From a virus (Duplodnaviria; Caudoviricetes), in the IMG/VR virus record IMGVR_UViG_3300038675_000499, positions 1 through 44,697 of that record: a stretch of 44,697 nt of DNA; one strand, 5' to 3'. A program made the translations under genes and the position numbers. A model generated the notes under the pieces. That model saw only the letters and a program-made list of their open reading frames with translations. It made no database searches and was not told where the DNA came from. Position 1 is the stretch's first letter; each line of letters starts with the position of its first letter. Shown here one piece after another: positions 1,333-42,289 of the stretch.

Positions 1333-1487
1333 TGGATCAGGACCAGGCGCTTACAATGCAGGAGCAGGTTCGCATGATAGGGGAGTTGGTCAAAACCATT
1401 ATTTCGACAGTAACCGTGGGGGTATTGTTGCTGATCGGTAGGGCTCTCCTGGCGCTGTTATCCGTTATTCCAGGACGGAGGCGATGA
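1332..1487 (+). CDS. Small membrane protein (51 aa, below the ORF-track cutoff)
   Basis: MDQDQALTMQ...TVTVGVLLLIGRALLALLSVIP; coupled to neighbours on both sides. Confidence 0.5.
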   Translation: MDQDQALTMQEQVRMIGELVKTIISTVTVGVLLLIGRALLALLSVIPGRRR

Positions 1488-1684
1488 TGCAGAAGATCTT
1501 CCGGATCGCGGCGCTGTTCTACTTCATCAGCGGCGTCCTTGCCAGTTGGCTGGTTCTGTTTAGCCAGGTCCTGGGCATCCAGCCCGCCGTCGACATCCTG
1601 CAAAAATCCAGCCAGCGGTCGATCCTCAGCGCGATCGCTGCGGCCGCCCTGTCGGTGGCATACGCACACAAGAGGCAGAAATGA
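1484..1684 (+). CDS. Small two-TM membrane protein
   Basis: Two hydrophobic segments; ggagg RBS. Confidence 0.55.
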   Translation: MMQKIFRIAALFYFISGVLASWLVLFSQVLGIQPAVDILQKSSQRSILSAIAAAALSVAYAHKRQK

Positions 1685-1699
1685 GCACCGAGCGGAGGA

Positions 1700-1930
1700 A
1701 TGAGAATAATGCATCTAGATAAAAATGACCTGATACAGACGCTTCAAAAGGTGGTGCCAGAAGATGGAATGATTGAGTTAACTATTGCTGCTGATGCCAT
1801 GGATGATGTGGCATTTTCTGGTAGTCCTATGCCTAGGGGGCAAGATCCATATAGCAATTACACAAGACAATCGCGTGCAATTTACTACAGGAATACTACG
1901 ATAACGTTAAACATCAAGAGTAGATTATGA
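1700..1930 (+). CDS. Hypothetical protein, AT-rich
   Basis: ggagg RBS; stop overlaps the xis start. Confidence 0.55.
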   Translation: MRIMHLDKNDLIQTLQKVVPEDGMIELTIAADAMDDVAFSGSPMPRGQDPYSNYTRQSRAIYYRNTTITLNIKSRL

Positions 1931-2163
1931 CTTCTGAAAATTCTGACATCATGAAATTGTCGGAGCTGGCGCGGAGGCTGAAGATCTCCCCCCGCACGCT
2001 CAAAAAGCACCTGCGGCACATGGATCACTATCGGCTCTCTCCCAGGAGCCCGATCATGATCCGCCGCAGCGACTTCGACGCCTACCTGGAACGGGTACGC
2101 CGGCCGGCGCAGGAGGACCCCGACGTCCGGGCCATCCTCGAGCGCGTGGCGGCGATGGGGTAG
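1927..2163 (+). CDS. xis: Excisionase-like MerR/HTH_17 protein
   Basis: MKLSELARRLKISPRTL...IMIRRSDFDAYL; lies directly upstream of the integrase. Confidence 0.7.
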   Translation: MTSENSDIMKLSELARRLKISPRTLKKHLRHMDHYRLSPRSPIMIRRSDFDAYLERVRRPAQEDPDVRAILERVAAMG

Positions 2164-2166
2164 ATC

Positions 2167-3444
2167 ATGGGCGTGACGTTACGGGAGACTCCGAAGGGAT
2201 CCGGCCGCTGGGTGATCTATATATCCAAGGGCCGGGCTCGGATGAATTACACCGTGCAGGGGGGCAAGGAGCGCGCGCAGCAGGTGGCCGAGCAGGTGGC
2301 CGCGATCCTCGACCTGGTCGGGTTCGATGGCGTGGCCGAGTTCCTCCGCCGCGGGACCCGCTCCGCCGACCCCGTCCCCACCGTCAAAACCTACGCCACC
2401 AGGTGGCTCGAGTACCTGGACAAAACGGACCTGAAGCGCTCGACGCGCATGATGTATGAATCGAACGTCCGGAACCACATTGTTCCCGAATTGGGAACAT
2501 ACCTGGTCACCGAGGTCGACTACGCGCTCCTGAAGGAGTTCCTGGCCACGAAAACCCAGAGCATATACTCCTCCGGGCGGTTCCGGGCTCCGAAAACGGC
2601 GAAGCAGTACGCAGGCAAGGAGCCCGTAGGACGCCGCTACAGCCGGGACACGATCCGGATCATGGCCATGACCCTCCGCGCCATTTTCCGGGAGGCGGTG
2701 AAGGACGGCCTGCTGCCGACCAACCCGGTCGAGGGATTGTCCCAGTTCTACCGGAAGAAGCGGAGGGACGTGCAGGTGCGGCGGTCGGACATCTACACCC
2801 TCGAGGAGCTGCACGCCATCGAGGACGTGCTCTCCGCCCGCCGGACTATATTCGGGGAGGACCTGGCGTTCAGCATGATGATGAGCCGGACCGGGGTCCG
2901 GATCGGGGAGGCGCGGGGGATCATGATCAGCGACCTGGATCCCCAGGAGCACGTGATCCACATCCGCCGCAACTTCCCATCCGGCCACCACGACCTCGAG
3001 GACAGCCCCAAAACGGAGCACTCGGAGCGGACGGTGGACGTGTCGCCGGAGCTCGAGGCGGAGCTGGGGGAGATGCTGCGCCGGCGCCGCGAGGCCCTCA
3101 TGGCGAAGGGAAAGCGCCTGGGGGCGGATGCCTGGATGTTCCCGGGCCCGTCAGGCGCCCCCGTCGACTACAAGGGGTTTTACGATCGATGGAACCGCGC
3201 CCAGGCCCTGGCAGAGGTGCGGCAGAGATCGCCGCACTCGCTGCGGCACACGTTTGCGTCCCAGATGCTGGCCGCCGGCGCCGACATCGCCTACATCTCC
3301 CGGCAGCTGGGGCACGCGAATCCGAGCATTACGCTGAGCATATATGTCCACTTTATCCCGGGCAAATCAGCAGGCGTCCGGGGTGTTTTGGACCGGGAGT
3401 TTGCATCAAAGTTGCATCACAAGGCAGGAGACGGGGAGAAATGA
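2167..3444 (+). CDS. int: Tyrosine integrase
   Basis: Catalytic motifs TGVRIGE, PKT, HSLRHTFAS, QLGH, SIYVH; attP directly downstream. Confidence 0.96.
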   Translation: MGVTLRETPKGSGRWVIYISKGRARMNYTVQGGKERAQQVAEQVAAILDLVGFDGVAEFLRRGTRSADPVPTVKTYATRWLEYLDKTDLKRSTRMMYESNVRNHIVPELGTYLVTEVDYALLKEFLATKTQSIYSSGRFRAPKTAKQYAGKEPVGRRYSRDTIRIMAMTLRAIFREAVKDGLLPTNPVEGLSQFYRKKRRDVQVRRSDIYTLEELHAIEDVLSARRTIFGEDLAFSMMMSRTGVRIGEARGIMISDLDPQEHVIHIRRNFPSGHHDLEDSPKTEHSERTVDVSPELEAELGEMLRRRREALMAKGKRLGADAWMFPGPSGAPVDYKGFYDRWNRAQALAEVRQRSPHSLRHTFASQMLAAGADIAYISRQLGHANPSITLSIYVHFIPGKSAGVRGVLDREFASKLHHKAGDGEK

Positions 3445-3624
3445 GTTTTCAGGGTGGGTGTAATTGATTTGTTTTCATGGAGCCAACGGCCGGAATCGAA
3501 CCGGCGACCTACTGATTACGAATTAATAACAACCCTTGAGAACACAGCATTTTGCGTCTAACTGATGCAAAATGACCCTCCTTTTCCTGCCTTTCAGGCC
3601 CGAGTTTGCATCATTTTTGCATCA
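3401..3624. repeat. Integrase arm-type sites (TTGCATCA repeats) flanking the att core
   Basis: Tandem copies at 3401-3408/3412-3419 and 3606-3613/3617-3624 (both pairs 11 bp apart); inverted copy TGATGCAA at 3563-3570. Confidence 0.75.
3478..3523 (-). other. attP core: 3' half of tRNA-Thr(CGT), not a complete tRNA
   Basis: Minus strand reads aTTCGTAAtcagtaggtcgccggTTCGAttccggccgttggctCCA: anticodon loop, T-arm, acceptor strand, CCA. The tRNA-like sequence stops at the anticodon loop. Confidence 0.9.
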
Positions 3625-3647
3625 TGATTTCGGTCGAAAGGTCTACC

Positions 3648-4628
3648 TTGTCTACCAAATTACCTTGGCTGCAATTCTACACTTCGGACTGGAGGAACGA
3701 TCCGAAGCTCTCCATGTGCAAACCCTCAACCCGTGGTATATGGATCGACGCTTTGAGCGCCATGCATGATGACGGCCGATCCGGAACACTCTCAGGCACG
3801 CTGTGTCAATTGACCCGCGTCCTGCGCTGTTCCGAATCCGAGCTTCATGACGCGCTCGATGACCTCACCGCCACCGGGGCCGCCGACGTAGAGCGCCGCA
3901 ACGGAATTGTCACGCTCGTAAATCGTAGGATGAGCCGGGAAGCTAAAGAGAGAGCCGACAATAAGATAAGGCAGCAAAGGCACCGTGAGGGGAAAACGGG
4001 TCACGATGATGGTAATGGATCGGTCACGCCTCCGTCACGCCTATCTGTATCTGATTCTTCTTCTCCGTTATCAGAAAAGAAAAAGGGGTCTGGGGGAAAG
4101 GAGAAACCGCCGCCGGCCCCAAGCACCGACCTGTTCCACTCGTTCTGGATCGAGTACCCGCGGCACGAAAACCCGCGAAAGGCCCGCGAGGCGTTCGACC
4201 GGGCCGGGATCACGCCAGAGCTGCTCGATCCGATCATCGACTGGCTCGCGGAAGCCCGGAAATCCGAGCAATGGCAGGATAAAACGAAAATACCGCACCC
4301 GACGACGTTCCTGAACCAGAGGCGGTGGGAGGGAGATCCGCCCCCGCCACCGGCGGCGAAGGCGCACGCCAGGGACACCGTCGGCCTGGCTGAGACCTAC
4401 CGTCCGCCGGAGCGGGACGTCTGCCCGAATTGCGAGGGGACCGGCCGCGTCCTGGTGGTGACGGGCGCCGCCGGGATCGTGGCCCGGGCGCCCTGGTCGG
4501 AGACTCGCCAGGCTGGACTGGCAGGGCCCGGGGAGCGGTGCAGGGTATATCGGTGCGCGTGCCGAATTGGGCGGCAGCACATGCACCTGGATCCGGAGCC
4601 GGCGCAGGATATCGAGGCGATTGCCTGA
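3648..4628 (+). CDS. Phage replication initiator (YdaU/DUF1376-like N-terminus)
   Basis: LPWLQFYTSDW...RGIWIDAL N-terminus; FHSFWIEYPR...HPTTFLNQRRWE C-terminal domain; probable TTG start after gaaagg. Confidence 0.8.
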   Translation: MSTKLPWLQFYTSDWRNDPKLSMCKPSTRGIWIDALSAMHDDGRSGTLSGTLCQLTRVLRCSESELHDALDDLTATGAADVERRNGIVTLVNRRMSREAKERADNKIRQQRHREGKTGHDDGNGSVTPPSRLSVSDSSSPLSEKKKGSGGKEKPPPAPSTDLFHSFWIEYPRHENPRKAREAFDRAGITPELLDPIIDWLAEARKSEQWQDKTKIPHPTTFLNQRRWEGDPPPPPAAKAHARDTVGLAETYRPPERDVCPNCEGTGRVLVVTGAAGIVARAPWSETRQAGLAGPGERCRVYRCACRIGRQHMHLDPEPAQDIEAIA

Positions 4629-4637
4629 GGAGGAGAT

Positions 4638-4865
4638 GTGGCACAGACGGAGAAGGTTATGGTAGACGCGGAACTCCCCCAGAAGCGGTTTTTCAGGCCA
4701 GACGAAGTGGCCCGATACCTGGAGCACGTATCCAAGCGGATGGTGTACCGATGGTGCCAGCTCGGGCGGATCCACTACATACGCTTCGGGCGCCGCACCG
4801 TGATCCCGCGGGAGGAGCTGGCCCGGCTGATGGTCGAGGGATGTCCACTGGAGGAGGAAAGGTGA
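4638..4865 (+). CDS. MerR/HTH_17 DNA-binding protein
   Basis: FFRPDEVARYL...VYRWCQLGRIHYIRFGRRTVIPREEL. Confidence 0.75.
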   Translation: MAQTEKVMVDAELPQKRFFRPDEVARYLEHVSKRMVYRWCQLGRIHYIRFGRRTVIPREELARLMVEGCPLEEER

Positions 4866-5539
4866 AATCGGAGGCTGAGCTTGCTGAGAAAGTGGTCGAT
4901 TTCCTTCAGGACCAGGGCTGGGAGATCTACCAGGAGGTCAAGGTCAAGTATTCGGGCGGCATCGCGGACATCGTTGCCGTCAGAGGACCAATAGTCTGGA
5001 TTGTCGAGTGCAAACTGAACTATGGGTTGCCCGTGATTTATCAGGCGCGGAACTGGGTGGGGAAGGTGCATTATGTGTCGGTCGCGGTGCTGCCCTCCCG
5101 GAACTTCTCTACCATCCTCGATGAGTACTGCCGCTGGAAGGGGATCGGCCGGATCCAGGTTAGAAGCATTCCCATAATTGAGGTACAGGCGAGGTTGACC
5201 CGCCGGCCCGTCCAGGCGAAGGCGATCATGGCCGACCTTTGTGAGGAGCAGAAGACGTTCGCGAAGGCGGGGAACAATAACTCTCGTTTCTACTCACCCT
5301 ACCAGCGAACCTGCGACCAGATCCGAAAGGTGGTCAAGCTCCGGCCGGGGATTTCCCTCAAGGAGCTGGTTTCGAGTATTGATCATCATTATGCCTCGAT
5401 CGCCTCCGCCAGAGGGAGCATTTCGTTCTGGGCCCAGAAGGGAAAGATTTCCGGGATTGAGGCAAAGAAGGAGTCGGGAAGGATTTTGCTCTATCCGAAT
5501 AACGATGAGATTTTGGACGAAATTGAGGTGAAGGGATGA
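4862..5539 (+). CDS. PD-(D/E)XK-fold nuclease-like protein
   Basis: QEV...GIADIVAV...WIVECKL motif; GTG start overlaps the previous stop. Confidence 0.65.
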   Translation: MKSEAELAEKVVDFLQDQGWEIYQEVKVKYSGGIADIVAVRGPIVWIVECKLNYGLPVIYQARNWVGKVHYVSVAVLPSRNFSTILDEYCRWKGIGRIQVRSIPIIEVQARLTRRPVQAKAIMADLCEEQKTFAKAGNNNSRFYSPYQRTCDQIRKVVKLRPGISLKELVSSIDHHYASIASARGSISFWAQKGKISGIEAKKESGRILLYPNNDEILDEIEVKG

Positions 5540-5826
5540 AGCCAGGATATTACTGGGGACGATTAAAGGGTGATCCGGTACCCATGGAGCCCTGCAAGGT
5601 GCAGGATGATGAAACGGTGTGGTTTTTTATGGACGAGTTTCACCCGATGAGTGTGGCCCGGCTGGAGTTCGGCCCCGAGATAATTCCACCTACCGAGGAA
5701 CGCATCGAAGCCGAAAAACTGTCATTCGAGCAATGGGACCGTCATCAGCGGGAAATATGGGCCGCCAGAAAAGCCGCGATTTTTCGGGACTTTGAGCGGC
5801 ATAAACGCGCGAAGGAGGAGATATGA
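5536..5826 (+). CDS. Hypothetical protein (MKPGxYW module)
   Basis: ATGA coupling; N-terminus similar to 6012-6563. Confidence 0.6.
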   Translation: MKPGYYWGRLKGDPVPMEPCKVQDDETVWFFMDEFHPMSVARLEFGPEIIPPTEERIEAEKLSFEQWDRHQREIWAARKAAIFRDFERHKRAKEEI

Positions 5827-5996
5827 ACTGGGAAGAAGCCGAGGAATATTTGAAAGTGGTCGAATCCGCCTACGCGGAGACCGGTAGCGCTGGGATATTT
5901 GCTGTGATCCACGTCATCCGACCCGTGCGGGACAGATTCAATAAGGGAGAGCGGACGCAAGAACTCTACGACGATATCATGGGGATCCAGCTTTAG
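5823..5996 (+). CDS. Hypothetical protein (57 aa, below the ORF-track cutoff)
   Basis: aaggaggag RBS; MNWEEAEEYLKVV...GERTQELYDDIMGIQL. Confidence 0.6.
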   Translation: MNWEEAEEYLKVVESAYAETGSAGIFAVIHVIRPVRDRFNKGERTQELYDDIMGIQL

Positions 5997-6011
5997 CGAG
6001 GGGGAGGATAA

Positions 6012-6563
6012 ATGAAACCAGGGATATATTGGGCCCAGCACAAAGACGCTACCGGTCGTCCGATGGAGCGGGTGAAGGTTGAGGATGGCGACACCCGAGC
6101 CTGGTTTATTCAGGATGGTGTGGAGGATTTTGCGATCGAGGATTTAAAATTCGGCCCACCGATCGCCCCCTGCCCACACTGCGGCAGCCAGGATTTGAGG
6201 CTATACCATACAAATCCATTGCCTTGGCCAAAACCATCAGAGCAATGGCAGGTAGAATGTGACGATTGCGAGGCAACTGGTGGTTATGGAAAAACGCAGG
6301 AAGATGCGATCGCAAAGTGGGATACCAGATTCCCGCCAGCAAACTATGCGGAGGAGCGCTTGAGGGTAATGGATATACTCGCGCAGCTGTATGGCCATCG
6401 CTGGGGTGTCAACCGGGAATCCACAACAGAATGGGATAAACTCATCTGCCCATTCTGCGGGAGGCCCCCATCGTGCGGCCACAGTGCGGCATGCTGGTGG
6501 GACTCAACTATCATGGATATCCGCTCTTTGATGCGCGCTATGGGAATGAAAATACCCAATTAA
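6012..6563 (+). CDS. MKPGxYW module fused to a Lar-like zinc ribbon
   Basis: PCPHCGS...VECDDCEATG...EDAIAKWDTR; further CPFC near the C-terminus. Confidence 0.65.
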   Translation: MKPGIYWAQHKDATGRPMERVKVEDGDTRAWFIQDGVEDFAIEDLKFGPPIAPCPHCGSQDLRLYHTNPLPWPKPSEQWQVECDDCEATGGYGKTQEDAIAKWDTRFPPANYAEERLRVMDILAQLYGHRWGVNRESTTEWDKLICPFCGRPPSCGHSAACWWDSTIMDIRSLMRAMGMKIPN

Positions 6564-6790
6564 TATCCCGAAACAGCACAAAACAGCACGAATGACCCCC
6601 AATAGCACAACTCCCCCGCCTCGATATTGCGTCTGCTCTCCATATCAGCGATAAAAGCTGTGACTGCAACAACATCTCCCTTGGTTGAGGTGGCTGGTCG
6701 TTCAGGGGTGGAAGGCCAGCCACCCTTCATGGGCCGGGACGAGCGCAACCCGGATAAAACACCATCGCTGAGTCGATCGACGACCTACCT

Positions 6791-7087
6791 ATGCCCAAGA
6801 TCAGAATCCGCAATCCCCGACCTGGCTGTGCGAAGTACACCACGGCTGGCCAGGCCGAGAGACTCGTCCGCAGGGGCGAGGCCGTGCTGTTCGGGAATGA
6901 GCTGGAGTTTCTGAGCGCGGCCGACCAGGCGCACATGCAGCGCATAGAGCGCCAGATCGCAGCTGACCGCAGGGGATCTGATGTCTACGTGGACCCCTAC
7001 TGCTACGAGATCATCGTCCGGAAGCTCCGATCAATCCCAACCGGTCCCGCCTTCCCCATAGTGCAGTTCGTGCGCGGGAGCTGCTGA
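6791..7087 (+). CDS. Hypothetical protein
   Basis: Stop overlaps the HNH start. Confidence 0.45.
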   Translation: MPKIRIRNPRPGCAKYTTAGQAERLVRRGEAVLFGNELEFLSAADQAHMQRIERQIAADRRGSDVYVDPYCYEIIVRKLRSIPTGPAFPIVQFVRGSC

Positions 7088-7596
7088 TGCCCAGAGCCAT
7101 CAGGCGGCCCTGCACTCACCCAGGATGCAGTGCCCTGGTGGATCCGCCCGCCAGGAGATGCCCCGCCCATACCAAGCAGGCGCGCGTGGAGGTGGACATC
7201 AGGAGAGGATCCGCTGCGAGCCGAGGGTATGACTCTCGGTGGCGTGCGGCGCGCGCGGCGTTTCTGTCTCGCCATCCGCTCTGTGCCCTGTGCCGTGCCG
7301 AGGGACGCTACACGCCGGCGTCTGACGTGGACCACATCCGACCCCACCGCGGGAACAACGACCTGTTCTGGGATCGGAGCAACTGGCAGCCGCTCTGCCA
7401 CAAGTGCCACAGCCAGAAGACGGCCCGGGAGGACGGGCGCTGGGGTGACCAGGTGGAGGCCAAGGGGGAGCGCGGCGGAGACCGACCCCCGGGGGGGCGG
7501 TCGGATCCCTGGCGGAAAGGCCGCGAGACCGGGCGCGCGCCTTCGCGTGAGAAATCGGGCATGGAGAATTCAGGAATTTTGAGAGGTGAGGGGTGA
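7087..7596 (+). CDS. Terminase-associated HNH endonuclease
   Basis: RGYDSRW...HPLCALC...DVDHIRPHRG...NWQPLCHKCHSQKT; position before terS. Confidence 0.92.
   Translation: MPRAIRRPCTHPGCSALVDPPARRCPAHTKQARVEVDIRRGSAASRGYDSRWRAARAAFLSRHPLCALCRAEGRYTPASDVDHIRPHRGNNDLFWDRSNWQPLCHKCHSQKTAREDGRWGDQVEAKGERGGDRPPGGRSDPWRKGRETGRAPSREKSGMENSGILRGEG
7481..7560. other. Candidate cos/packaging-initiation region
   Basis: GC-rich inverted repeat accgacccccgggggggcggt between the HNH domain and terS, the usual cos position in HK97-like phages; exact cut site not identifiable. Confidence 0.35.
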
Positions 7597-8021
7597 AATC
7601 TGGTCAGAGGCCGAAATCAGCCCGGATGAAATTGGTCCAGGGGAATGCCGGCCACGAGGCGGTGCGGGATCTGAAACGGGAGGCGGCCCGGGAACCGGAG
7701 CCCGACCTGGTCGAAGGGATCCCGGAGCCACCGCGGAAGCTCAAGGCTGAGGCAAAACGGGAGTGGGACCGCGTCGCAGCGCAGCTGGTGAAGACCCGGG
7801 TGCTGGCTGTGCACCAGCTCAGCATTCTGGCCAGCTACTGCGTCCTCCACGCGCACATCGTCAAGTGCGAGCAGCGGGGGGAAATAGCGACGGGCGCGGT
7901 TTACACCCAGTACCGCATGCTGGCGGCGGAATTCGGGCTCACTCCCAACTCAATCACGCGGGTAAAGGCACTTGGTGGCGAAGAAACCAGTAAAAAAGGC
8001 ATCCGGGCGTTCATCGGGTAA
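7593..8021 (+). CDS. terS: Terminase small subunit (P27-like)
   Basis: PEPPRKL...AKREWDRV...LASYC...AEFGLTPNS. Confidence 0.9.
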   Translation: MKSGQRPKSARMKLVQGNAGHEAVRDLKREAAREPEPDLVEGIPEPPRKLKAEAKREWDRVAAQLVKTRVLAVHQLSILASYCVLHAHIVKCEQRGEIATGAVYTQYRMLAAEFGLTPNSITRVKALGGEETSKKGIRAFIG

Positions 8022-9792
8022 GCCGGCGCCCAGGAAACCAACTGAGCCCAAGGACACCACAGGAGCGACACGATATGCAGTCGAGGTACTGGCAGGTCGG
8101 ATCCTCGTTGGAAACCCGGTCAAACTGGCCTGCGCCCGGCATCTCAGCGACATCAAGAACCAGAAGCGCACCGGTCTGCAGTGGCGGCCCGAGGCTGCGC
8201 AGCGTGCCGTCGATTTCATTGAGCAGTTCTGCACCGTCGAGGTTAAGAACGAAGTAGTGCCATTCAAACTGTTGCTATTTCAGGCATTTATCGTCGGCTC
8301 CCTTTTTGGTTGGTTCAATCCCGACGATAGCCGGCGCTTCCGTAACGCCTATATCGAGGAGGCCAAGGGTAATGGGAAAACGCCGATCGCCGCGGCGATC
8401 GCGCTGTACGGCCTGATCGCCGACGGCCAGGTCAGCCCTGAGATCTACTTCGCGGCCGTCACCAGGGAGCAGGCGAATATCGGATTCAGGGACGCCAAGG
8501 CCATGGCGGAGCGCTCTGAGGAGATCAAAAGCCTCCTCGACATCCGGGAGGCGGCGCTTCTGTTCCCGGAGCGGAACGGCGTGCTGCGGGCCGTCTCGTC
8601 TGAGCACCGCGGCCTGGACGGGAAGCGGCCGCACATCGTGATCGTCGACGAGCTGCACGAGCACCCCACGGGCCTGGTCGTCGACAAAATGCGCGCCGGC
8701 ACCAAAAACCGCACCAACGCCATGATCATCCGGATCACCAACTCCGGATCCGATCTGGAGTCGGTCTGCTGGCATGAGCACGAGTACAGCATGTCGGTCC
8801 TCGAGGGTAAAGTGAAGGACCCCAGCTGGTTCGGCTACATCTGTTCCCTGGACAAGGGCGATGAATGGACCGACCCCGCCTGCTGGGAAAAGACGAACCC
8901 GGGCCTGGGCACCATCCTGCCGCGAGCTTACCTGACCGAACAGGTGCGGGAAGCCCAGGGCATGCCCAGCAAGCAGAACATTGTCAAGCGGCTGAATTTT
9001 TGTATCTGGACCCAGCAGCACACGTTATGGATTCCGATCGAGCAGTGGGAGCGCTGCAAGGAGAAATTCGACCAGGCCGAGCTCGAGGGTGAGCCCTGCT
9101 GGGTGGGTCTGGATCTGTCGGACAAGCTGGACTTATCGACCGCCGTGTTCGTGTTCAAGTACCCGATCGAGCAGGAAATCGCCGTAAAAGTCGGGCACCG
9201 GGACGAAATCAATCCCCACGAGGAGGTGGAGGCCCAGGTCAATATCGATTTCGGGATCGATATCCTACCGTTCTTCTTTATCCCGGAAGAGACGATGCAC
9301 CAGCGCGAGAAAGAGGACCGCGTCCCCTACAGCGACTGGGAGCGCAATGGGTTCGTGATCGCCACCCCGGGGCAGATTATCGACTACGGGTACATCTACC
9401 GCACCGTGCTCGCCATGTCGAAGCGGTTTTCCATCCAGCAGATCGGGTATGACCCCCGCGGCGCCACCCAGTTGGCCATCCAGCTCGGCGAGGCCGGCTT
9501 CGAAATGGTGGAGCTGACCCAGGGATTCAACAACATGTCGGAGCCAGCCCAGATCTTCGAGGCCCTGGTCGCCGCCGGCCGGGTCCGCCACAACGGGCAC
9601 CCGGTCATGACCTGGAACGTCCAGAACTCCGCGGTGAAGCACTCCAAGGACAACCGCATGATCATCCCGTACAAGAGCCATGCGCGGAAACGAATCGATG
9701 GTGTGACCGGCGTCTGCATGGCACTCGGTCGGGCCATGGTAGCCAAGTCAACGGGTTCGGTCTACGAGTCCAGGGGGATTCTGCGATTATGA
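7972..9792 (+). CDS. terL: Terminase large subunit (HK97-type)
   Basis: Walker A KGNGKT, Walker B IVIVDELH, nuclease motifs GLDLS...D and RIDG. Confidence 0.96.
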   Translation: MVAKKPVKKASGRSSGKPAPRKPTEPKDTTGATRYAVEVLAGRILVGNPVKLACARHLSDIKNQKRTGLQWRPEAAQRAVDFIEQFCTVEVKNEVVPFKLLLFQAFIVGSLFGWFNPDDSRRFRNAYIEEAKGNGKTPIAAAIALYGLIADGQVSPEIYFAAVTREQANIGFRDAKAMAERSEEIKSLLDIREAALLFPERNGVLRAVSSEHRGLDGKRPHIVIVDELHEHPTGLVVDKMRAGTKNRTNAMIIRITNSGSDLESVCWHEHEYSMSVLEGKVKDPSWFGYICSLDKGDEWTDPACWEKTNPGLGTILPRAYLTEQVREAQGMPSKQNIVKRLNFCIWTQQHTLWIPIEQWERCKEKFDQAELEGEPCWVGLDLSDKLDLSTAVFVFKYPIEQEIAVKVGHRDEINPHEEVEAQVNIDFGIDILPFFFIPEETMHQREKEDRVPYSDWERNGFVIATPGQIIDYGYIYRTVLAMSKRFSIQQIGYDPRGATQLAIQLGEAGFEMVELTQGFNNMSEPAQIFEALVAAGRVRHNGHPVMTWNVQNSAVKHSKDNRMIIPYKSHARKRIDGVTGVCMALGRAMVAKSTGSVYESRGILRL

Positions 9793-11474
9793 TCTTCACA
9801 CTGCCGAGCGCATTCGTCAGGGCCTGGAACGTAGCCCGCGTGATGTTGGCCAACCCCTCCCGCTCTGGCGCCCTGCTGATCCCGATGCGCCATGCCGGCC
9901 AGGTGGTGGACAGCGACACCGCCATGACGGTGAGCGGCTACTGGCGGGCCGTGAACTACATCTCGGGCCAGATCGCCGGGCTGCCGTGGAACGTGATTCA
10001 GGAGAGCAACGACCGCACCACGGTCCTCCGCAATCACCCCGTCGCTCGGGTGCTCCGCCGGCCGAGCGAGGAGGCGGGGAAGTTCACATGGCTCGAGACG
10101 ATGATTGCCTGGGCCTTGACCTGGGGGAACGCCTACGCCGAGATCGAGCGGGACCAGGGCGACCGCCCGCATGCGATGCACCTGGTGTCGCCCGATCGGG
10201 CGGAAGTGAAGCGCGGATCCATCGTGAATGGGGTATTCCAGGAGAATGCGGCCGGGAAGATCCACTACAAGTTCACCAACCGCGGCGGCGAGGCAACGAT
10301 CATGCCAGCCCGGGACGTGTTCCACTTGCACGGGCTGGGTTTCGATGGGCTCGTTGGTTACTCCGTGATCAACATCGCCGCCCGCAGCCTCGGGATTACT
10401 CTCGCGGTGGAGAGCTACCAGGAGGATTTCTTCGGAAACGGCCTGGTTGGGACCGGGTACCTGGCCCACCCGGGAACCCTCAAAGAGCAGGCACACAAGA
10501 ACCTGAAAAAGGACGTAGAGGAGAAGTCCCGGCCCGGTCAGAAGTTCCGGCCGCTGATCCTCGAGGAGGGGATGGAGTGGAAGGATATGGGCCTCCCCTC
10601 CGACGATGCGCAGCTGCTGGAGACCCGGAAGCTGCAGATCTCGGATCTGGCGCGCTGGTTTGGGCTCCCGCCCCATAAACTGGCTGACCTCGAGCGCGCC
10701 ACGTTCTCCAACATCGAGAGCCAGAGCACGGAGGTGGTCAACGACTGCTTCATGCCCTGGATCCACAGGATCGAGGAGGAAGCGAACTTCAAGCTGCTGA
10801 ACCAGCGCGAGTTGGGGGTCCGCACGAAGCTCAACGTCCGGGGCCTGCTGCGTGGCGATGCGGCCAGCCGGGCAGCCTACTACCAGGTCATGACCCAGAT
10901 CGGCGCCTATTCGGTCAACCAGGTCCTGCGCCTCGAGGATATGGACCCTATCGGGCCCGAGGGCGACGAGCGCCTGGTGCAGCTCAACCAGACGACGCTG
11001 AAGCGCCTGGTCGAGGGCCCGCCGGCGCCGAAGGCGATCGAGGACCCCGATGACCCGGCGGAGCCCTACATTCCCACGGCCAGCTACCAGATCCTTTTCC
11101 AGGACGCATTCCGGCGGATCATGCGGCGGGAAGCGGGGCGATTCGAGCAGAACCGCCACAAATTCACCTCTCCGGAGGCGTTTGCCGGGTGGCTGGAGGA
11201 GTTCAAGGGCCAGCACGGAGAGTACGTATCCGAGACCCTGCGACCGGTCGTGATGAGCCTGGCGGCACAGTTCCCCGCCGGCGCGATGGCCGGGACCAGG
11301 CTGCAGATCCAGCTCCGCAAGATCTCCTCGGCGCACCTGGAGATGTGCACCACCTGGCTGCACGGGCTGTTCAACGAGGCCGGAGATTACGACATCGAGC
11401 GGAAATCACGGGAATCCGCGATGGATGCCCTCGACCGGCTGGTCACAGCCGTAACCATGGAGACCACGCGATGA
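9789..11474 (+). CDS. Portal protein (HK97 family) with C-terminal extension
   Basis: LTWGNAYA, FHLHGLGFDGLVGYS, ILEEGM, ATFSNIE, LLRGD motifs. Confidence 0.95.
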   Translation: MIFTLPSAFVRAWNVARVMLANPSRSGALLIPMRHAGQVVDSDTAMTVSGYWRAVNYISGQIAGLPWNVIQESNDRTTVLRNHPVARVLRRPSEEAGKFTWLETMIAWALTWGNAYAEIERDQGDRPHAMHLVSPDRAEVKRGSIVNGVFQENAAGKIHYKFTNRGGEATIMPARDVFHLHGLGFDGLVGYSVINIAARSLGITLAVESYQEDFFGNGLVGTGYLAHPGTLKEQAHKNLKKDVEEKSRPGQKFRPLILEEGMEWKDMGLPSDDAQLLETRKLQISDLARWFGLPPHKLADLERATFSNIESQSTEVVNDCFMPWIHRIEEEANFKLLNQRELGVRTKLNVRGLLRGDAASRAAYYQVMTQIGAYSVNQVLRLEDMDPIGPEGDERLVQLNQTTLKRLVEGPPAPKAIEDPDDPAEPYIPTASYQILFQDAFRRIMRREAGRFEQNRHKFTSPEAFAGWLEEFKGQHGEYVSETLRPVVMSLAAQFPAGAMAGTRLQIQLRKISSAHLEMCTTWLHGLFNEAGDYDIERKSRESAMDALDRLVTAVTMETTR

Positions 11475-21262: not shown

Positions 21263-24200
21263 ATGGCCATCTCCCGATTATTCGTTGAAATAGGGAAAGA
21301 CGTAGACCGGCTGAATCAGTCGCTGCGCGAGAGCATGCGGGCGGCGGAGGAGGCGGGCGTCAAGGTGACGTCGACTGGTCAGCGGATGCTATCCAGTTTC
21401 GAGCGGGCGCTGAATCCAACCAAGGAATTGGGGGAGCAGATCCAGCTGCTGGAGAAGGCGGGGAAATCCTCGGCCGACATCTGGGCGGTGTACGAAAACC
21501 GCATCAAGGAGGCGGCCGAGGCGCAACAGAAGATGGGCACGGCCATCGATCCGACAGTGCAGCGGCTGCTCGATCAGAACGTGCAGGTCGAACGCAACGC
21601 TATCAACTGGAAAAACCTCAGCACCCAGCTGACGTCGGTCGGCAACCACATGTCCAGCATCGGCCGCAGCATGTCGATGGGGATTACCGTCCCGATCACT
21701 GCCGCCGCGGCTGCGGTCTTCAAATTCGGCAGCGATTTCGAGACAGCGTTTGCCGGGGTGGAAAAGACCGTAGACGCGACCCGCGAGGAACTCGACCGCC
21801 TCAGCGTCGGGATAAGAGCGATGTCGACCGAGATCCCGGTTGCCGCCCGGGAGATCGCCGGAATCGCGGCGGCTGCCGGCCAACTGGGCATCGAAACGGA
21901 GAACATCCTCGGGTTCAGCCGGGTAATGGCCGACCTGGGCGTGGCTACCAACATGGCGGCGGAGGAGGCGGCGACATCTCTGGCGCGCCTGGCCAACGTC
22001 ACCCAGATGCCGCAGCAATCATTCGACCGCCTGGGGTCGACGATTGTTGAGCTTGGCAATAATCTCGCCACCACGGAATCGGAAATCGTGGCGATGAGCC
22101 TGCGCCTGGCTGGCGCCGGCACACAGATCGGGATGAGCGAGGCGCAGATTCTATCCTTCGCCGCGGCTCTGTCCTCGGTGGGCATCGAAGCTGAGGCCGG
22201 CGGATCCGCCATGTCCAAGCTGTTTATCCAGATCGCCAGCGACGTCGCAACGACTGGAGGGAATCTCACCACGTTTGCCCGGGTATCAGGGATGACGGTG
22301 GAACAGTTCCGGCAGGCGTTCCAGGAGGATGCCGCGGGGGCGATTACGGCATTTATTTCCGGGCTGGGGCGGATAAACGAATCGGGTGGAAACACCCTGG
22401 CCATCCTGGCGGAGCTGGGCATCACCGAGGTACGGATGCGAGACGCCATGTTGAGGACCTCGGGCGCCGGAGACCTCCTCACAAAATCGCTGAAGCTCGG
22501 AGCCGAGGCGTGGAAGGAAAACAACGCGCTCACGAAGGAGGCGGACAAGTTCTACTCCACCACGGCCAACCAGCTCAAGATGCTGGCGAACAGATTGATG
22601 GACGCGGGGCTCACCATTTACCAGGCGCTGAAGCCAGCAATTGATGCCGCGATCCGCCTTTTCGAGGATTTCGCGGAGAAGGTGAAGGTAGCCGCCGACC
22701 TGTTCGCTGAGCTGCCGACATCCATGCAGACGACCATCGTGGCAATCACCGGCCTCGCCGCGGCGGCAGGGCCCACCCTGATCGTCCTGGGCTCGCTGAC
22801 CAGGGCGGTGGCAACCATGGCAACGGTGATTCCTGCTGCCTCGGCGGCGATCAACGGGAGCGCAGGTCTGACTATGGCGGTAAGGAGTCTGGGTGCCGCC
22901 GGGGCCGCCACGGCCGCCATCTTCGCCGGCTGGCAGATCGCGGAATGGATCGACAAGCTCGACCTGTTCGGCCGCCGGGCGGCTGTGGCTGAGGACCAGA
23001 TAATCAAGCAGGCGGCAGCCTACCGGACGCAGGCGATTGAAATCGGGGCTGTTCGGGAGGCCATGGCGAAATACCAGGAGCTGTTCGACAAGGGGGCCAT
23101 TACCGAGGGGACGATGCGGAATATTTTCGCGGACCTCACTGATCAGCGGCCGACCGAAACGCTGGAGCAGTACCGCGACCGCATGAAGGAAATGGTGGAG
23201 CAATACGAGGCGGCGCACAAGAAGGCGGCGGAAACCCACCAGGAGATTGCCCACGGCGGCGGCGTGATTGAACAGTATCGTAATTCCCTCGAGGCGCTCA
23301 AAGCGACTTTCAACGGATTCCTGGAAAACGACGTCACCCGGGCGCTGGGGATGCAGGGCCCGCCGTCGCTGCCGGCCCGGCCGGACGTGACGATCGCCCA
23401 GACCCGCACGGCGGTGGACGAATCGTTCTCGGCTGAGCTGGAGCGGGCGTCGGCCGAGATGCAGAAGCTCGCCCTGGAGGCGGACGATTACTGGAGCTAC
23501 CTGCGGGACATGGGGGCGCAGGTCGTGGCCGACACCGCAATGGACGTGCAGCAGCTGACGGAAATGATGGGGGAGGAGGGCCGGAGGGCCATCGACATCT
23601 ACCTCGAGCAGGCCCGGGAGGCTCTCGCAGAGGGGACGGGCGGTTTCAACGAGATCGCGGCCACCGCATTGGGCGGCTACCTGTCCGACTATGAGAACGT
23701 CCTGACCGGAGTGGCGGACAGTTTCGGCAATTTCTTCGACTACCTGGCCGACGGATTCGCTCGGGCGATCGCGTTCAGTGACGATTTCGGGGAGGCGCTC
23801 GAGGACATCGGCCGTAATGCCGTCGGGGTGCTGATTGCCTCCCTGGTCCGCCTGGGCATCCAGTGGGCTCTGAACAAAGCGCTCATGTCCTCCGCCGACA
23901 AGGGGATCCTGGCGGCGAATGCGGCGCAGGCGGCGGCGACAGCGACGGCCTGGGCGCCGGCGGCCGCCCTGGTGTCCCTGGCCACCCTGGGGGCGAATGC
24001 AGCCCCGGCCAATATAGCGATCGGGACCACCTCGGCCGTCTCCATGGGCGTGGCAGCCATGTCTCGCCTCGGAGGATTCCAGGAGGGAGGGTTCACCGGC
24101 TGGGGGAGCCCGGACCAGGTGGCGGGGTTCGTCCATGGCCAGGAGTTCGTCATGGACGCCGACGTGACGCGCAAATATCGCCCCCTCCTCGAGGCGCTCA

Positions 24201-24487
24201 ACGCCGGCCAGGTCCCGGAGGAGCGGAGCATTGACCGCAATGGAGCCTTTGACCTGGGCGCCCTCGCCAGCCCGCAGATTCAGGTGAGCATCCAGAACTA
24301 CGGTACGTCGAAAGCATTCGACGTGCAGCTCGACGAGGGGACCGTCCGGATTATCGCCCGGGACGAGGCCCTCAGCGTGCTCACCCAGCGGGGCCCTGAG
24401 GTGATCGCCGCCGACCTGGCCTACGCCAACAGCCGGACATCCAAGGCGATCTCCCGGCATACCACTGCACGGAGGGGGGATAGATGA
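21263..24487 (+). CDS. Tape measure protein (TP901 family core)
   Basis: 1074 aa, Ala-rich; FETAFAGVEKTV, RLGSTIVELGNNLATTESEI, GIEAEAGGSA; GFVHGQEFVM near the C-terminus. Confidence 0.95.
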   Translation: MAISRLFVEIGKDVDRLNQSLRESMRAAEEAGVKVTSTGQRMLSSFERALNPTKELGEQIQLLEKAGKSSADIWAVYENRIKEAAEAQQKMGTAIDPTVQRLLDQNVQVERNAINWKNLSTQLTSVGNHMSSIGRSMSMGITVPITAAAAAVFKFGSDFETAFAGVEKTVDATREELDRLSVGIRAMSTEIPVAAREIAGIAAAAGQLGIETENILGFSRVMADLGVATNMAAEEAATSLARLANVTQMPQQSFDRLGSTIVELGNNLATTESEIVAMSLRLAGAGTQIGMSEAQILSFAAALSSVGIEAEAGGSAMSKLFIQIASDVATTGGNLTTFARVSGMTVEQFRQAFQEDAAGAITAFISGLGRINESGGNTLAILAELGITEVRMRDAMLRTSGAGDLLTKSLKLGAEAWKENNALTKEADKFYSTTANQLKMLANRLMDAGLTIYQALKPAIDAAIRLFEDFAEKVKVAADLFAELPTSMQTTIVAITGLAAAAGPTLIVLGSLTRAVATMATVIPAASAAINGSAGLTMAVRSLGAAGAATAAIFAGWQIAEWIDKLDLFGRRAAVAEDQIIKQAAAYRTQAIEIGAVREAMAKYQELFDKGAITEGTMRNIFADLTDQRPTETLEQYRDRMKEMVEQYEAAHKKAAETHQEIAHGGGVIEQYRNSLEALKATFNGFLENDVTRALGMQGPPSLPARPDVTIAQTRTAVDESFSAELERASAEMQKLALEADDYWSYLRDMGAQVVADTAMDVQQLTEMMGEEGRRAIDIYLEQAREALAEGTGGFNEIAATALGGYLSDYENVLTGVADSFGNFFDYLADGFARAIAFSDDFGEALEDIGRNAVGVLIASLVRLGIQWALNKALMSSADKGILAANAAQAAATATAWAPAAALVSLATLGANAAPANIAIGTTSAVSMGVAAMSRLGGFQEGGFTGWGSPDQVAGFVHGQEFVMDADVTRKYRPLLEALNAGQVPEERSIDRNGAFDLGALASPQIQVSIQNYGTSKAFDVQLDEGTVRIIARDEALSVLTQRGPEVIAADLAYANSRTSKAISRHTTARRGDR

Positions 24488-33519: not shown

Positions 33520-33843
33520 ATGGGCGTGCACATCGACTGGCTCCTGATCCAGGAGGTCCGGGCAGGGGAGATCACCCACCGGTCCCGGATCGGAGTGGTG
33601 CGGTTCGGGAACGATTTCCGTGAGTGGCTCGATCCCTACAGCGCCGTCTGCTCGGTGGTGGTCGTCGGCTCCCGGGCCTATTTCACCGCGGCCGTGCACG
33701 AGGACGGGCGGGACGCATTCCTCCGGACCCTCCTCTCCGCCCGCCACGCCCTCCGGGAAATCCTCCAGCCCCTGGGGGTGACCGTGGCCGAGTGGGAGCG
33801 CATGAAGGGGGGGCAGCTCCTCCCCCGCCGGTTCCGGGTATGA
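33520..33843 (+). CDS. Hypothetical protein
   Basis: gaggtg RBS; coupled to the sigma-factor gene. Confidence 0.55.
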   Translation: MGVHIDWLLIQEVRAGEITHRSRIGVVRFGNDFREWLDPYSAVCSVVVVGSRAYFTAAVHEDGRDAFLRTLLSARHALREILQPLGVTVAEWERMKGGQLLPRRFRV

Positions 33844-34388
33844 GCGCGCCTCCCCCGGAGGTCGCTCGGAGCGTCGAGTTCCACGCCCGCCGCGCCGCGG
33901 CCGCCTCCGGTCGCTACCAGGACCTGGATGACCACCGCCAGGACGGGTGGCTCGGCTACTGCCAGGCGGCCCAGCGGTTCGACGGCGACGCCGGCGCCCA
34001 GATCAACACCTTCGCCGCCGGCCGGATCCGCGGCCAGATCGTGGACGGGATCCGGGAGCGCACGTTTTTCGGCCCCTCCGCCAGCCGGAGCCGCCGCCCC
34101 CTGGTCAAGATCAGCCTCGACGACCCCCGCACCCCCCACCTTTTGCCCTGCTCCCCTTCCGATCCCGAGGATGACGCCGCTCGGGCCGAGACCGCCGCGG
34201 CCGTCCGCCGGGCCCTCGAGGCCCTCCCCGAGCAGCAGGCCCAGGTCCTCCGGATGCACTATTTCGAGGAGCTGCCCCTCACAGAGGTCGCCCGCCGGCT
34301 GGGGATGAGCCACAGTAACGCCAGCCGGCTCCACGTCCTGGCGCTCCGGGCGCTCCGCCGCAGGTGGACCTCATGCGCACCGGGGTAG
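33840..34388 (+). CDS. Sigma-70 family RNA polymerase sigma factor (FliA/WhiG-like regions 2 and 4)
   Basis: DDHRQDGWLGYCQAAQRFD...FAAGRIRGQIVDGIR; LEALPEQQAQVLRMHYFEELPLTEVARRLGMSHSNASRLH. Confidence 0.88.
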   Translation: MSAPPPEVARSVEFHARRAAAASGRYQDLDDHRQDGWLGYCQAAQRFDGDAGAQINTFAAGRIRGQIVDGIRERTFFGPSASRSRRPLVKISLDDPRTPHLLPCSPSDPEDDAARAETAAAVRRALEALPEQQAQVLRMHYFEELPLTEVARRLGMSHSNASRLHVLALRALRRRWTSCAPG

Positions 34389-37180: not shown

Positions 37181-37341
37181 TCGACTACGCCACCTATCAG
37201 CCTGTCAATCGCGTGGACCTGGTGGCCTGGATCCGCCGGCGCGGCCTGGCCACCATCCTCCTCGGCATCGTGGCCTGGGCCGTCACCATGGTCACCGGGT
37301 ACTTCCTGATCGGGGTTCGGAAGGTCTCTGTCGAGCAGTAG
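37177..37341 (+). CDS. Small single-TM protein (54 aa)
   Basis: GTGA overlap; RRRGLATILLGIVAWAVTMVTGYFLIG. Confidence 0.5.
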   Translation: MIDYATYQPVNRVDLVAWIRRRGLATILLGIVAWAVTMVTGYFLIGVRKVSVEQ

Positions 37342-37381
37342 CAGTTTTCAAAACCAGCAACTCACACAAAGGAGAAGCCAA

Positions 37382-38029
37382 ATGGCTGCAACAAAGAAGG
37401 CGCAGGACGCAGGAATGGATTTACCGAAGCTGAACCTGAAGGAAACCGAGATCAGGATTGTCGGAGACACGCCCCTGATCGTGCATGCGTGGAGCCAGAA
37501 GGCGATCAAGGAAATGCTGGACAAGCAGATGAAACGTGCCAACGCTGGCAAAGAAGCCAAGAACCCCGATGCCGATTACGAGCAATCGCTCTACAAGCTG
37601 GAGGATGGAGCCTATGGGTTCCCTTCCGTTGGCTTCAAGTCGGCCGCCGTCACCGCCTGCACGAGCTTGGCCGGCATGACGAAGGTCGCCGCCAGGCAGG
37701 CGTTCCGCGTCACCGGGGAGATGGCGAAAATCAAGACCGTCTACAACGCCAAAGAGATGAGCGTCGACATGGTGCGCATCGAAGGCGAACCCGAGATGAG
37801 AGAGGACATGGTCCGGGTTGGAATGGGGACCGCGGACATCAGGTATCGCGGGCAGTTCTTCCCGTGGTGCGCCACTCTGCATGTGCTTTACAACGCCAAC
37901 GTGATGAGCGAGGGACAGATCACCAACCTGTTCAACACTGCTGGTTTTGCGGTGGGCGTCGGCGAGTGGCGGCCAGAGAAGGACGGCCAGTACGGCTGCT
38001 TCCACGTCGATACCAAGGCAAAAAACTGA
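37382..38029 (+). CDS. Stand-alone Cas7/RAMP-like RNA-binding protein
   Basis: RAMP-like motif order: EIRIVGDTPLIVH, GFPSVGFKSA, beta-hairpin VRVGMGTADIRYR, C-terminal Gly-rich loop GFAVGVGEWRPEKDGQYGCFHV; aaaggag RBS; abuts a repeat array. Confidence 0.7.
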   Translation: MAATKKAQDAGMDLPKLNLKETEIRIVGDTPLIVHAWSQKAIKEMLDKQMKRANAGKEAKNPDADYEQSLYKLEDGAYGFPSVGFKSAAVTACTSLAGMTKVAARQAFRVTGEMAKIKTVYNAKEMSVDMVRIEGEPEMREDMVRVGMGTADIRYRGQFFPWCATLHVLYNANVMSEGQITNLFNTAGFAVGVGEWRPEKDGQYGCFHVDTKAKN

Positions 38030-38043
38030 TGAGTATTGTTACC

Positions 38044-38386
38044 GGCAAGGCGGGGCCTGGCTTGGCTAGTTTGGGTCAGGCGTGGTTGGGCAGGCCAGGC
38101 CAGTCGCGGCATGTTCTGGATGGGTCAGTCCTGGCTAGGCAGTCTCGGCTTGGTGTGGTTGGGCAGGAAAGGCGAGGCGCGGCCGGGAGTGTCAAGGCCG
38201 TGCTTGGCACGGCTGGAGAGGCTGGTCTCGGCGCGGTTGGGCTTGTACGGGAAAGGCTGGGTATGGCAGGCGCGGCTGGTCCGGTTAAGGATAGGCGAGG
38301 AGAGGCTGGTTTTGTCGAGGCTTGGCAGGCGAGGCAAGGATGGGCCAGTCGTGGCCTGGCAGGGATGGGCAAGGCAGGCACGGTAT
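38044..38386 (+). repeat. Pentameric G(G/T)H-NN array, candidate guide ncRNA (not a canonical CRISPR)
   Basis: 63 pentamers plus 7 GGC(A/T) tetramers tile the 343 bp exactly; the triplet is near-constant and the dinucleotide is variable. Confidence 0.9.
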
Positions 38387-38416
38387 GAATCACCGCATCA
38401 CTGAAGGCGAGAAAGA

Positions 38417-40716: not shown

Positions 40717-42289
40717 GATACTCCAAGTCAACCTCCTGAGCCTGATGGAGGCGCCCTACAACCCCCGCCGGCGGTTCTCGGACGCTGGGATGGAAGAGCT
40801 GACCGCCAGCGTCGAGCGCCACGGCGTCCTCGTCCCCCTCCTGGTGCGCGCCGTCAGCCTCGCGGACTGTCCGGAGCGGGAGGGATACGGCTATTATGAG
40901 ATTATCGCCGGGGCGCGGCGCTTCCGGGCCGCCCAGGCTGCCATGCTCGAATCCGTCCCGGTCCGCGTGCTGGAGCTCTCCGACGACGAGGCGCTCGAGC
41001 TGGCCATTTTGGAGAACCTGACCCGCGAGGACGTCCACCCCATGGACGAGGCGGCTGGGTTCCAGGCGCTGCTGCAGCGGCCTGGGTACGACGTCGCCGC
41101 GGTTGCCGCCCGGGTGTCGAAATCCGAGAGCTACGTCTACCAGCGGCTGCAGCTGCTGAAGCTGATCCCGATCGCCCAGGAGGCGTTCCTGGCCGACCGC
41201 ATCCACGCCGGCCACGCCCTCCTGATCTCCCGGCTCCAGCCCAAGGACCAGGAGGAAGCCCTCGAGCGGGCCTACGATCGCTACGGGAACGAGCGCGTCC
41301 TGGTCGGGGTGCGGCAGCTGGCGGCCTGGATCCAGAGCAACATCTACCTGGACCTCCACTCCGCACCGTTCAAGAAGGACGACGAGACACTCCTCCCCGC
41401 GGCCGGGTCCTGTGTCGCCTGCCCGAAGCGCTCCGGCTACGCCCCCGCCCTGTTCGCCGACATCCACAAGGCGGACACCTGCACCGATCCCACCTGCTTT
41501 CAGGCGAAGATCCAGGCGCACATCAAGGTGACTCAGAGAAATGCGCGCGCCGCCGGCGAGGACCTCCTCATGGTCTCCACCACCTGGAGTCGGCCGTATA
41601 ACCAGAAGGCTAAAAAGGACGATCCAATCTACCGGACGTCCTGGAAGCCGGTGGAGAAAAAGAAGGACCGCTGCTCATTCACCCGGCAGGCCCTGGTGGT
41701 GGATGGGACCCACGACATCGGCCGGATCCTGCAGGTGTGCGCGGATCCTGCCTGCAAAAAGCACCACGGCAACAGCTCCACCAGGCAGCAGCGGGATCCG
41801 GAGGAGATCGCCAAAGAGAAGAAGGAGCAGGCGCGGCGGGAGCTCGAGATCAAGATCCGGACCGGGGTCATGGACGCAATCCTGGCCACGATACGGACCG
41901 ACTACTGCTCCCGGGAGGAGTGGGCGTTCATCCTGTCAGCTGTTGTCGATCTGATGAGCAACGACTCCGCCCGCATCCTCTGCCGGCGCCACGACTTGAA
42001 GCCTGGCGAGGATAACGACTATCCCAGATGGCGCACAATCGCGGCAAATTGGGTCAAGGGGATACCGACGATTGTCGAATTACGCAGCCTGGCCATGGAG
42101 ATCGCGCTACTGCCTCTCACCATGGTCGGATATCACGAGAGGTATGACGACCGTCCCGATCCTCTCCTCAAGGCCGCGGACATGTTCAGCGTGGACGTCC
42201 AGCACGTCGAGGATACGATCAAGATCGGAGCGGCCGTCCAGGCAAAACACGCGAAAGCCAAAACCACGAAAAAGAGGAAGGCGAAATGA
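40706..42289 (+). CDS. ParB/Spo0J-family protein
   Basis: NPRRRF...ELTASV...GVLVPLLVR...IIAGARRFRAA...ENLTREDV..MDEA; Cys-rich middle region. Confidence 0.9.
   Translation: MQTEILQVNLLSLMEAPYNPRRRFSDAGMEELTASVERHGVLVPLLVRAVSLADCPEREGYGYYEIIAGARRFRAAQAAMLESVPVRVLELSDDEALELAILENLTREDVHPMDEAAGFQALLQRPGYDVAAVAARVSKSESYVYQRLQLLKLIPIAQEAFLADRIHAGHALLISRLQPKDQEEALERAYDRYGNERVLVGVRQLAAWIQSNIYLDLHSAPFKKDDETLLPAAGSCVACPKRSGYAPALFADIHKADTCTDPTCFQAKIQAHIKVTQRNARAAGEDLLMVSTTWSRPYNQKAKKDDPIYRTSWKPVEKKKDRCSFTRQALVVDGTHDIGRILQVCADPACKKHHGNSSTRQQRDPEEIAKEKKEQARRELEIKIRTGVMDAILATIRTDYCSREEWAFILSAVVDLMSNDSARILCRRHDLKPGEDNDYPRWRTIAANWVKGIPTIVELRSLAMEIALLPLTMVGYHERYDDRPDPLLKAADMFSVDVQHVEDTIKIGAAVQAKHAKAKTTKKRKAK

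Follow-up and report, generated by a model that had tools for sequence, protein, structure and literature searches.

What does a single RAMP-like gene do in a phage genome when it is followed by an array of five-nucleotide units, and against whom is that array directed? The DNA analysed here (the window) is a complete virus record of 44.7 kb (44,697 nucleotides), and the resemblance to VIPR pointed out by the sequence-only reading is confirmed, since the locus is an instance of that published system (10.64898/2026.04.26.720920). Overall, we put the probability at roughly 0.8 that it is a VIPR locus with a staggered array, likely protecting a temperate phage from a particle-hijacking satellite by silencing the satellite's replication genes. 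The locus consists of the following features:

37382..38029, + strand: vipr gene, encoding a 215-aa RAMP (RRM core, thumb and G-loop GVGEWRP), identified by a PDB sequence match and its AF2 fold
38044..38386, + strand: staggered vrRNA array of 63 five-nt units and seven four-nt junction units
~37317..38412, + strand: accessory cassette without counterpart in sister phages, its left edge lying between 37239 and 37317

The 215-aa ORF is present at 37382-38029 on the plus strand with the motifs from which a RAMP had been proposed, and this identity is borne out, specifically as Vipr, by sequence searches in both directions and by fold searches. The only PDB sequence match is Vipr of phage SUSP1 (36pp_D; E 4e-4 with the single sequence and 3.2e-7 with a profile), and reciprocally SUSP1 Vipr retrieves the phage ORF with an E of 3.6e-5. 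The AF2 model of the phage protein has a pLDDT of 88.5 and places Cas7-group folds at the top of a Foldseek search, with Csm3/Cmr subunits best (E 2.6e-5), and a VIA fold search aligns 151 residues with Csm3/Cmr (Z 9.4, rmsd 3.7). According to the available part of 10.64898/2026.04.26.720927, residues H17, K33, R138, D177, W178 and R179 of SUSP1 Vipr hold the GGY triplet or the skipped base. These positions correspond to H35, K51, R156, E195, W196 and R197 of the phage protein, where all six are invariant or at least 90% conserved among 91 homologues, the alignment around K51, in the N-terminal part, being of low identity. The family is large: of 8,000 candidates 7,943 scored, and clustering at 50% identity gives 3,518 groups; no family for phage Vipr was found in Pfam or PADLOC, and the protein falls into PHROG 4652, whose function is unknown.

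The array begins 14 bp past the vipr ORF and covers 343 bp, exactly as first described. Its characterisation as strictly 5-nt-periodic survives for the period but not for the strictness: there are 41 GG pairs at a lag of 5, where 10,000 shuffles average 14.9 and never exceed 32, and seven 4-nt units each shift the register by -1. The constant G(G/T)H triplet that had been proposed starts 62 of the 63 five-nt units (GGY in 40 of the 63), and 15 of the 16 possible dinucleotides are represented among the variable NN positions. Six of the junctions read GGCA-G (38089, 38138, 38162, 38265, 38324 and 38373) and the seventh reads GGCT-G (38211); the resulting segments comprise 9, 9, 4, 9, 10, 11, 9 and 2 units. 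Six segments of 9-11 NN are full-length predicted guides (VIPR guides have about 9-16 pentamers) and two are short; S3 is possibly a contracted guide. The first seven segments are as follows:

38044..38088, + strand: segment S1, 9 NN; no target found
38093..38137, + strand: segment S2, 9 NN; 17/18 in a 122-aa gene, G025:C60 60883, minus strand
38142..38161, + strand: segment S3, 4 NN
38166..38210, + strand: segment S4, 9 NN; 16/18 in a primase-helicase gene, G025:C60 59075, minus strand
38215..38264, + strand: segment S5, 10 NN; no target found
38269..38323, + strand: segment S6, 11 NN; 20/22 in the primase-helicase gene, G025:C60:58996-59027, minus strand
38328..38372, + strand: segment S7, 9 NN; no convincing target

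The segments lie back-to-back without a spacer, successive guides overlap by 1 nt at the junctions as in the staggered-array layout (compared with the legend of fig. S18), and 30 nt separate the end of the array from the next start codon. The structured 3' tails that separate guides carry in type II systems (SUSP1, P. fulva) were not encountered in the phage array, an Rfam scan of the window returned no match, and the array folds little better than its shuffles (z -1.8). No comparable array was found elsewhere in the genome when both strands were scanned. No RNA data set is listed as containing the stretch, and the one RNA-labelled sequencing run is probably DNA. The genome is also free of other CRISPR components, as had been noted from the letters, with no other cas genes among 46 ORFs compared with PHROGs and 14 compared with Pfam and no repeat-spacer CRISPR in a tandem-array scan; nor does the vipr locus contain a nuclease.

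An orphan Cas7-like protein, either a CRISPR remnant or an anti-CRISPR decoy, could in principle stand beside a low-complexity repeat or a small coding gene, and several observations fit such a view: the best solved folds are Csm3/Cmr, the SUSP1 entry is absent from the matches in a Foldseek library extending to April 2026, the array is traversed by open frames (including one of 122 codons at 38036-38404), and annotators label such arrays as hypothetical genes. We nevertheless regard it as extremely unlikely, because Vipr is the only sequence similarity, no codon frame could persist across homologues through a 5-nt period with -1 slips, and the NN decode to targets under one skip rule only.

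Contigs from other samples bear on the integrity of the cassette. A run of another study carries 37340-37654 with no differences and 37899-38384 with one, and owing to this near-identical copy the locus is not an assembly artefact. In the sister-phage contig X4, position 37238 is joined to 38413 with 79 other letters between them, and contigs X10 and X11 depart from the window at 37316 and 37314, respectively, into sequence resembling the start of the next gene. A third study contributes a vipr variant with 96% identity and a shorter array variant in which the register is kept, the short side of the joint to this variant being only 46 letters.

The phage that carries vipr is temperate; PHROGs annotation of the window recovers integrase, terminase, portal, protease, capsid, tail and lysis genes. 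Its likely attachment site is located behind the integrase:

3477..3524, - strand: likely attP core, formed by the 3' half of tRNA-Thr(CGT), with a 46-nt exact match in one genome

The exact match to the 46-nt core is found in a single genome of the collection, an Acidobacteriota MAG, and with up to three mismatches the core is found in 8 of 151 relatives of that MAG. Because the first named homologue of the phage integrase also comes from Acidobacteria, the host is, as far as these sequence matches indicate, likely an acidobacterium (Acidobacteriota). The same 46 nt occur twice in genome G001, 100 kb apart, each copy adjoining an integrase with 31-39% identity to that of the phage. No vipr gene was found in G001 or among 301 genomes sampled from the host phylum. 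Within the phage, the vipr locus is situated 3' of a repressor/cro pair and 5' of a Gp3-like gene, for which no relatives were found in viral contigs. Elsewhere in the genome, a ParB-domain gene (40734-42151) constitutes another accessory module, across which contigs of two other studies join, and the late region closes with a gene for a sigma-70-type factor (33624-34388; Pfam Sigma70_r2 and r4).

Targets were sought under the published rule, in which the NNs are joined by one wildcard base (10.64898/2026.04.26.720920). With two mismatches allowed, S6 gives a single match in the 151 relatives of the Acidobacteriota MAG, compared with none for the reversed control, and the matching site (20/22) lies inside a primase-helicase gene of G025:C60. 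Two further sites were found afterwards in the surrounding 20 kb, one for S2 (17/18) in a 122-aa gene just upstream of the primase-helicase and one for S4 (16/18) in the same primase-helicase gene as S6. All three guides read the sense strand and place the skipped base at the codon wobble position, and skips of 0, 2 or 3 bases yield only 12-15 matches for these guides. Within the element, none of 5000 shuffled guides is as good as S2 and one of 5000 is as good as S4; the corresponding value for S6 (0/5000) is not independent, since S6 chose the site. None of 126 guides from other phages reaches 89% in the element, and the adjacent 20 kb beyond the target region contain no guide matches. Among 120 primase-helicase homologues, only the one of G025 fits S6 at 10 of 11 residues, with the others at 8 or fewer. 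S1, S5 and S7 are not significant in the element when compared with shuffles, the best site for S7 (14/18) being off-register in the satellite terS, with 166 of 5000 shuffles as good. A three-letter code, in which the last base of the triplet would store the skipped base, was rejected, with 9 of 26 positions agreeing in a hand count.

The bases that flank the three target sites differ from the junction dinucleotides, so the junctions are punctuation and stand outside the code, and the match of S4 fixes the boundary between segments 4 and 5 at GGCT-G 38211. The proposal that the NNs of one segment jointly spell a target thus gains sequence matches for three of the six full-length segments, S2, S4 and S6, which appear to spell genes of one small integrated element. 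Since there are five mismatches in 58 positions, the actual target is probably a relative of the element in G025. The features of the phage and of the element that connect the two are these:

G025:C60:52639-63321 (L161 8640-19322): target element, 10.7 kb, integrated in a relative of the likely host
21263..24487, + strand: phage tape measure gene, both ends of which are common to the shorter gene of the element
7525..7555, + strand: stretch just upstream of the phage terS, in a 33-nt alignment with the element at 94%

The target element is flanked by 17-bp direct repeats at the 3' end of a tRNA-Asn and encodes an integrase, the primase-helicase, a terS of the same Pfam family as the phage terS and an 861-aa tape measure protein, with no match to a capsid or portal among the ORFs scanned. 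The tape measure ends of phage and element share 82% of nucleotides over 317 and 419 bases (71% and 82% at the amino acid level), which leads us to suggest that the element is probably a satellite of this phage group. The shared 33-nt stretch precedes terS in the element as well and is a candidate packaging (cos-like) signal. A second capsid-less integrated element, G031:C215 (L202, about 800-9900), contains the same tape measure gene with 83% DNA identity to that of G025:C60 and differs from it in the replication genes; none of the phage guides match it. The phage replication region at 4126-4820 is 79% identical over 514 nt to G031:C215 and 74% identical over 146 nt to G025:C60. Possibly, the two elements represent an undescribed family of satellites of Acidobacteriota phages. 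The attP core has no match in G025 at three mismatches, and a limited literature search returned nothing about the target element or about what staggered arrays target in nature.

Because three of the six full-length guides spell genes of a helper-related element, the phage likely silences its own parasite. Alternatively, the guides could mainly regulate genes of the host or of the phage itself, as might be imagined from the position of the locus in the early operon and from the three segments without a known target, which could have host targets. Searches of the phage genome gave no guide above its shuffles, the best site (17/22) being off-wobble and equalled by 11 of 200 shuffles; close to where the major tail gene starts, the sites of S5 (17/22) and S6 (15/22) were discarded as off-wobble. 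Five attB-like genomes searched with five guides yielded one match, compared with three control matches, S5 at one mismatch gave none in 151 genomes, and in 81 relatives of G025 the guides S1, S7 and S5 gave 0, 1 and 1 matches (controls 1, 0 and 0), the S7 and S5 matches lying in no evident mobile-element gene. With self matches no better than shuffles, single matches at control level in host-like genomes and three guides converging on one mobile element, a mainly regulatory role is very unlikely. Of the expectation that targets would lie in rival elements or host genes, the first part is borne out by the satellite-like element, and for the second these searches found no target in a host gene.

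Scans of broader collections added no further targets. In viral contigs, exact matches to 8-NN parts of S6 (9), S5 (20) and S1 (20) are scattered and mostly of low GC, and no match of S5 or S6 extends past 19/22; one S1 match reaches 18/18, which is about chance level for 20 matches, and was set aside. A metagenome scan produced no match for S6 with 10 NN and 31 unrelated matches for S5 with 9 NN, the best of these (21/22) on a contig with 37% GC. Fourteen other regions of 14-20 kb, 12 around Acidobacteriota primase-helicases and two around the attB match, contain no site for S2 and none better than 17/22 for S6 and 15/18 for S4.

The coupling of protein and array extends to homologous loci. 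Among 58 viral loci with 36-68% identity to phage Vipr (some of them duplicates), arrays that combine GGCAG junctions with constant triplets and variable NN occur in 56, and the two without an array end less than 600 nt downstream. The 151 distinct segments of these homologues mostly comprise 8-13 units, with an NN entropy of 3.3-3.9 of 4 bits. Cross-targeting among the loci at 85% or more was seen for 12 of 208 segments, compared with 9 for shuffles.

Beside vipr, 53 of the 58 homologous loci encode an accessory protein of ~165 aa, for which a profile of 15 proteins finds no match in six frames of the window (E 10). The protein (for example, L010:3663-4166) is predicted to be helical and belongs to no Pfam, PADLOC or named atlas family; its single-sequence model is weak (pLDDT 64). 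It has no sequence match to Vap1 of SUSP1, and a search of the window with SUSP1 Vap1 likewise gave no match. With neither structured 3' tails nor a Vap1 match, the phage locus is not placed in type II. The five loci without the gene comprise L020 and L021, which are the same locus and lack it although 3 kb and 0.8 kb downstream are covered, L056, which is cut off, and L057 and L058, in which vipr is partial. The two-gene layout of vipr and vap is typical, not defining, as stand-alone vipr genes are also listed (10.64898/2026.04.26.720920).

The absence of an accessory gene found in most homologous loci raises the alternative that the locus is a VIPR that has lost it and is now weak, inactive or reliant on a Vap from another element. 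Consistent with such a loss, SUSP1 without vap1 is unprotected against its satellite, according to the available part of 10.64898/2026.10.15.759431, and S3 and the last segment are short, with four and two units. On the other hand, the ORF is uninterrupted and preserves all six contact positions, the locus is almost unchanged in another study and is accompanied by a 96% variant with a different array version in a third, L020/L021 likewise do without the accessory gene, and SUSP1 Vipr with a guide alone represses a reporter and blocks lambda (10.64898/2026.04.26.720920). We consider such decay unlikely.

The anti-satellite reading, by comparison, can be laid out as a series of steps. From the layout, vipr and the array would be co-transcribed on induction or infection as part of the rightward operon after cro. 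SUSP1 Vipr places one subunit on each 5-nt unit, with the triplet buried and the NN shown (available part of 10.64898/2026.04.26.720927), and the conserved contact residues suggest that phage Vipr would polymerise in the same manner. The 4-nt GGCA-G units would break the register and thereby delimit guides of 9-11 NN, in which each NN would pair with two target bases while the third, at the codon wobble, is skipped, as the sites of S2, S4 and S6 suggest. Guides that equal the sense strand have the DNA template strand, and not the mRNA, as their only possible pairing partner. By analogy with SUSP1, the outcome may be a transcriptional block of the satellite primase-helicase operon, in keeping with a locus that contains no nuclease. 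A more far-reaching version, which we hold to be possible yet doubtful, is a one-protein VIPR without accessory gene, RNA tail, ribozyme or nuclease, in which Vipr alone would separate the guides of an array within the early mRNA at GGCA-G, by cutting or by ending the filament, and shut down the replication of an undescribed family of tape-measure satellites of Acidobacteriota phages. If true, no multiplexed RNA-guided silencer would be more compact, with a protein and six guides in ~1 kb.

Cultured phages of Gordonia and Mycobacterium share the staggered VIPR layout, with arrays at L093:3134-3457, L125:1820-2089 and L092:2104-2348, the last of which sits upstream of vipr, and some actinophage arrays are annotated as hypothetical proteins. 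These loci are ready laboratory models. One guide of the Gordonia phage UmaThurman (L093:3229-3273) matches a small capsid-region gene of mycobacterial phages at 18/18, antisense to the gene and with the skip on the wobble position. In exact scans, one of three actinophage guides matched, namely UmaThurman segment 3, in nine contigs, seven of them within one capsid-region gene. The guide also fits the homologue in the Gordonia phages Opie and Schnabeltier at 17/18, a match that is circular as evidence, and the other 20 actinophage segments gave nothing in these two phages. A capsid-region gene as the target of actinophage guides is suggestive only.

The VIPR system, its staggered layout and its anti-satellite use are already published; what is new here is a natural target. 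Like staggered VIPR (10.64898/2026.04.26.720920), the phage locus combines a lone Vipr RAMP gene with GGY/NN pentamers, has no CRISPR array and, as is usual for VIPR, belongs to a virus, and to the layout as described in the text and the legend of fig. S18 it adds natural targets and the GGCA-G junction. The text of the same report states sRNA-seq for the ribozyme and single-guide VIPR layouts and gives neither sRNA data nor natural targets nor a junction motif for staggered arrays. Class 1 CRISPR Cas7-group RAMPs such as Csm3 and Cmr4 share the RRM/thumb/G-loop fold with phage Vipr, but the identity is ~10%, and the phage locus differs from them in having no other cas genes, no repeat-spacer array and a gapped pairing.

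The closest comparison is with the type II VIPR of SUSP1, whose protein is homologous (22% identity, contact residues kept) and whose code likewise skips 1 nt at the codon wobble (10.64898/2026.04.26.720920). SUSP1, a lytic phage of E. coli, has individual guides that each end in a pseudoknot tail of ~40 nt, whereas the present phage is temperate, likely of Acidobacteriota, and its guides are tail-less and back-to-back. In the available part of 10.64898/2026.10.15.759431, SUSP1 depends on Vap1 to counter its satellite and directs its guides at the excision recombinase, whereas the present phage genome is without vap and its guides point to a primase-helicase operon. As for SUSP1/F5 in that part of the report, the target is probably a satellite, capsid-less and with a helper-related tape measure gene. 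The gapped code and anti-satellite role of VIPR have so far come mainly from one type II E. coli phage, and the locus adds a natural case that is independent of it, in a different Vipr clade, with a different array layout and likely in a different phylum, where more than one guide points to the same parasite, whose genes match those of the helper. It indicates from sequence where the guide boundaries lie and that the 1-nt skip also applies to staggered arrays, and its three guides and three sites form a test set for the processing of tail-less arrays and the need for an accessory protein.
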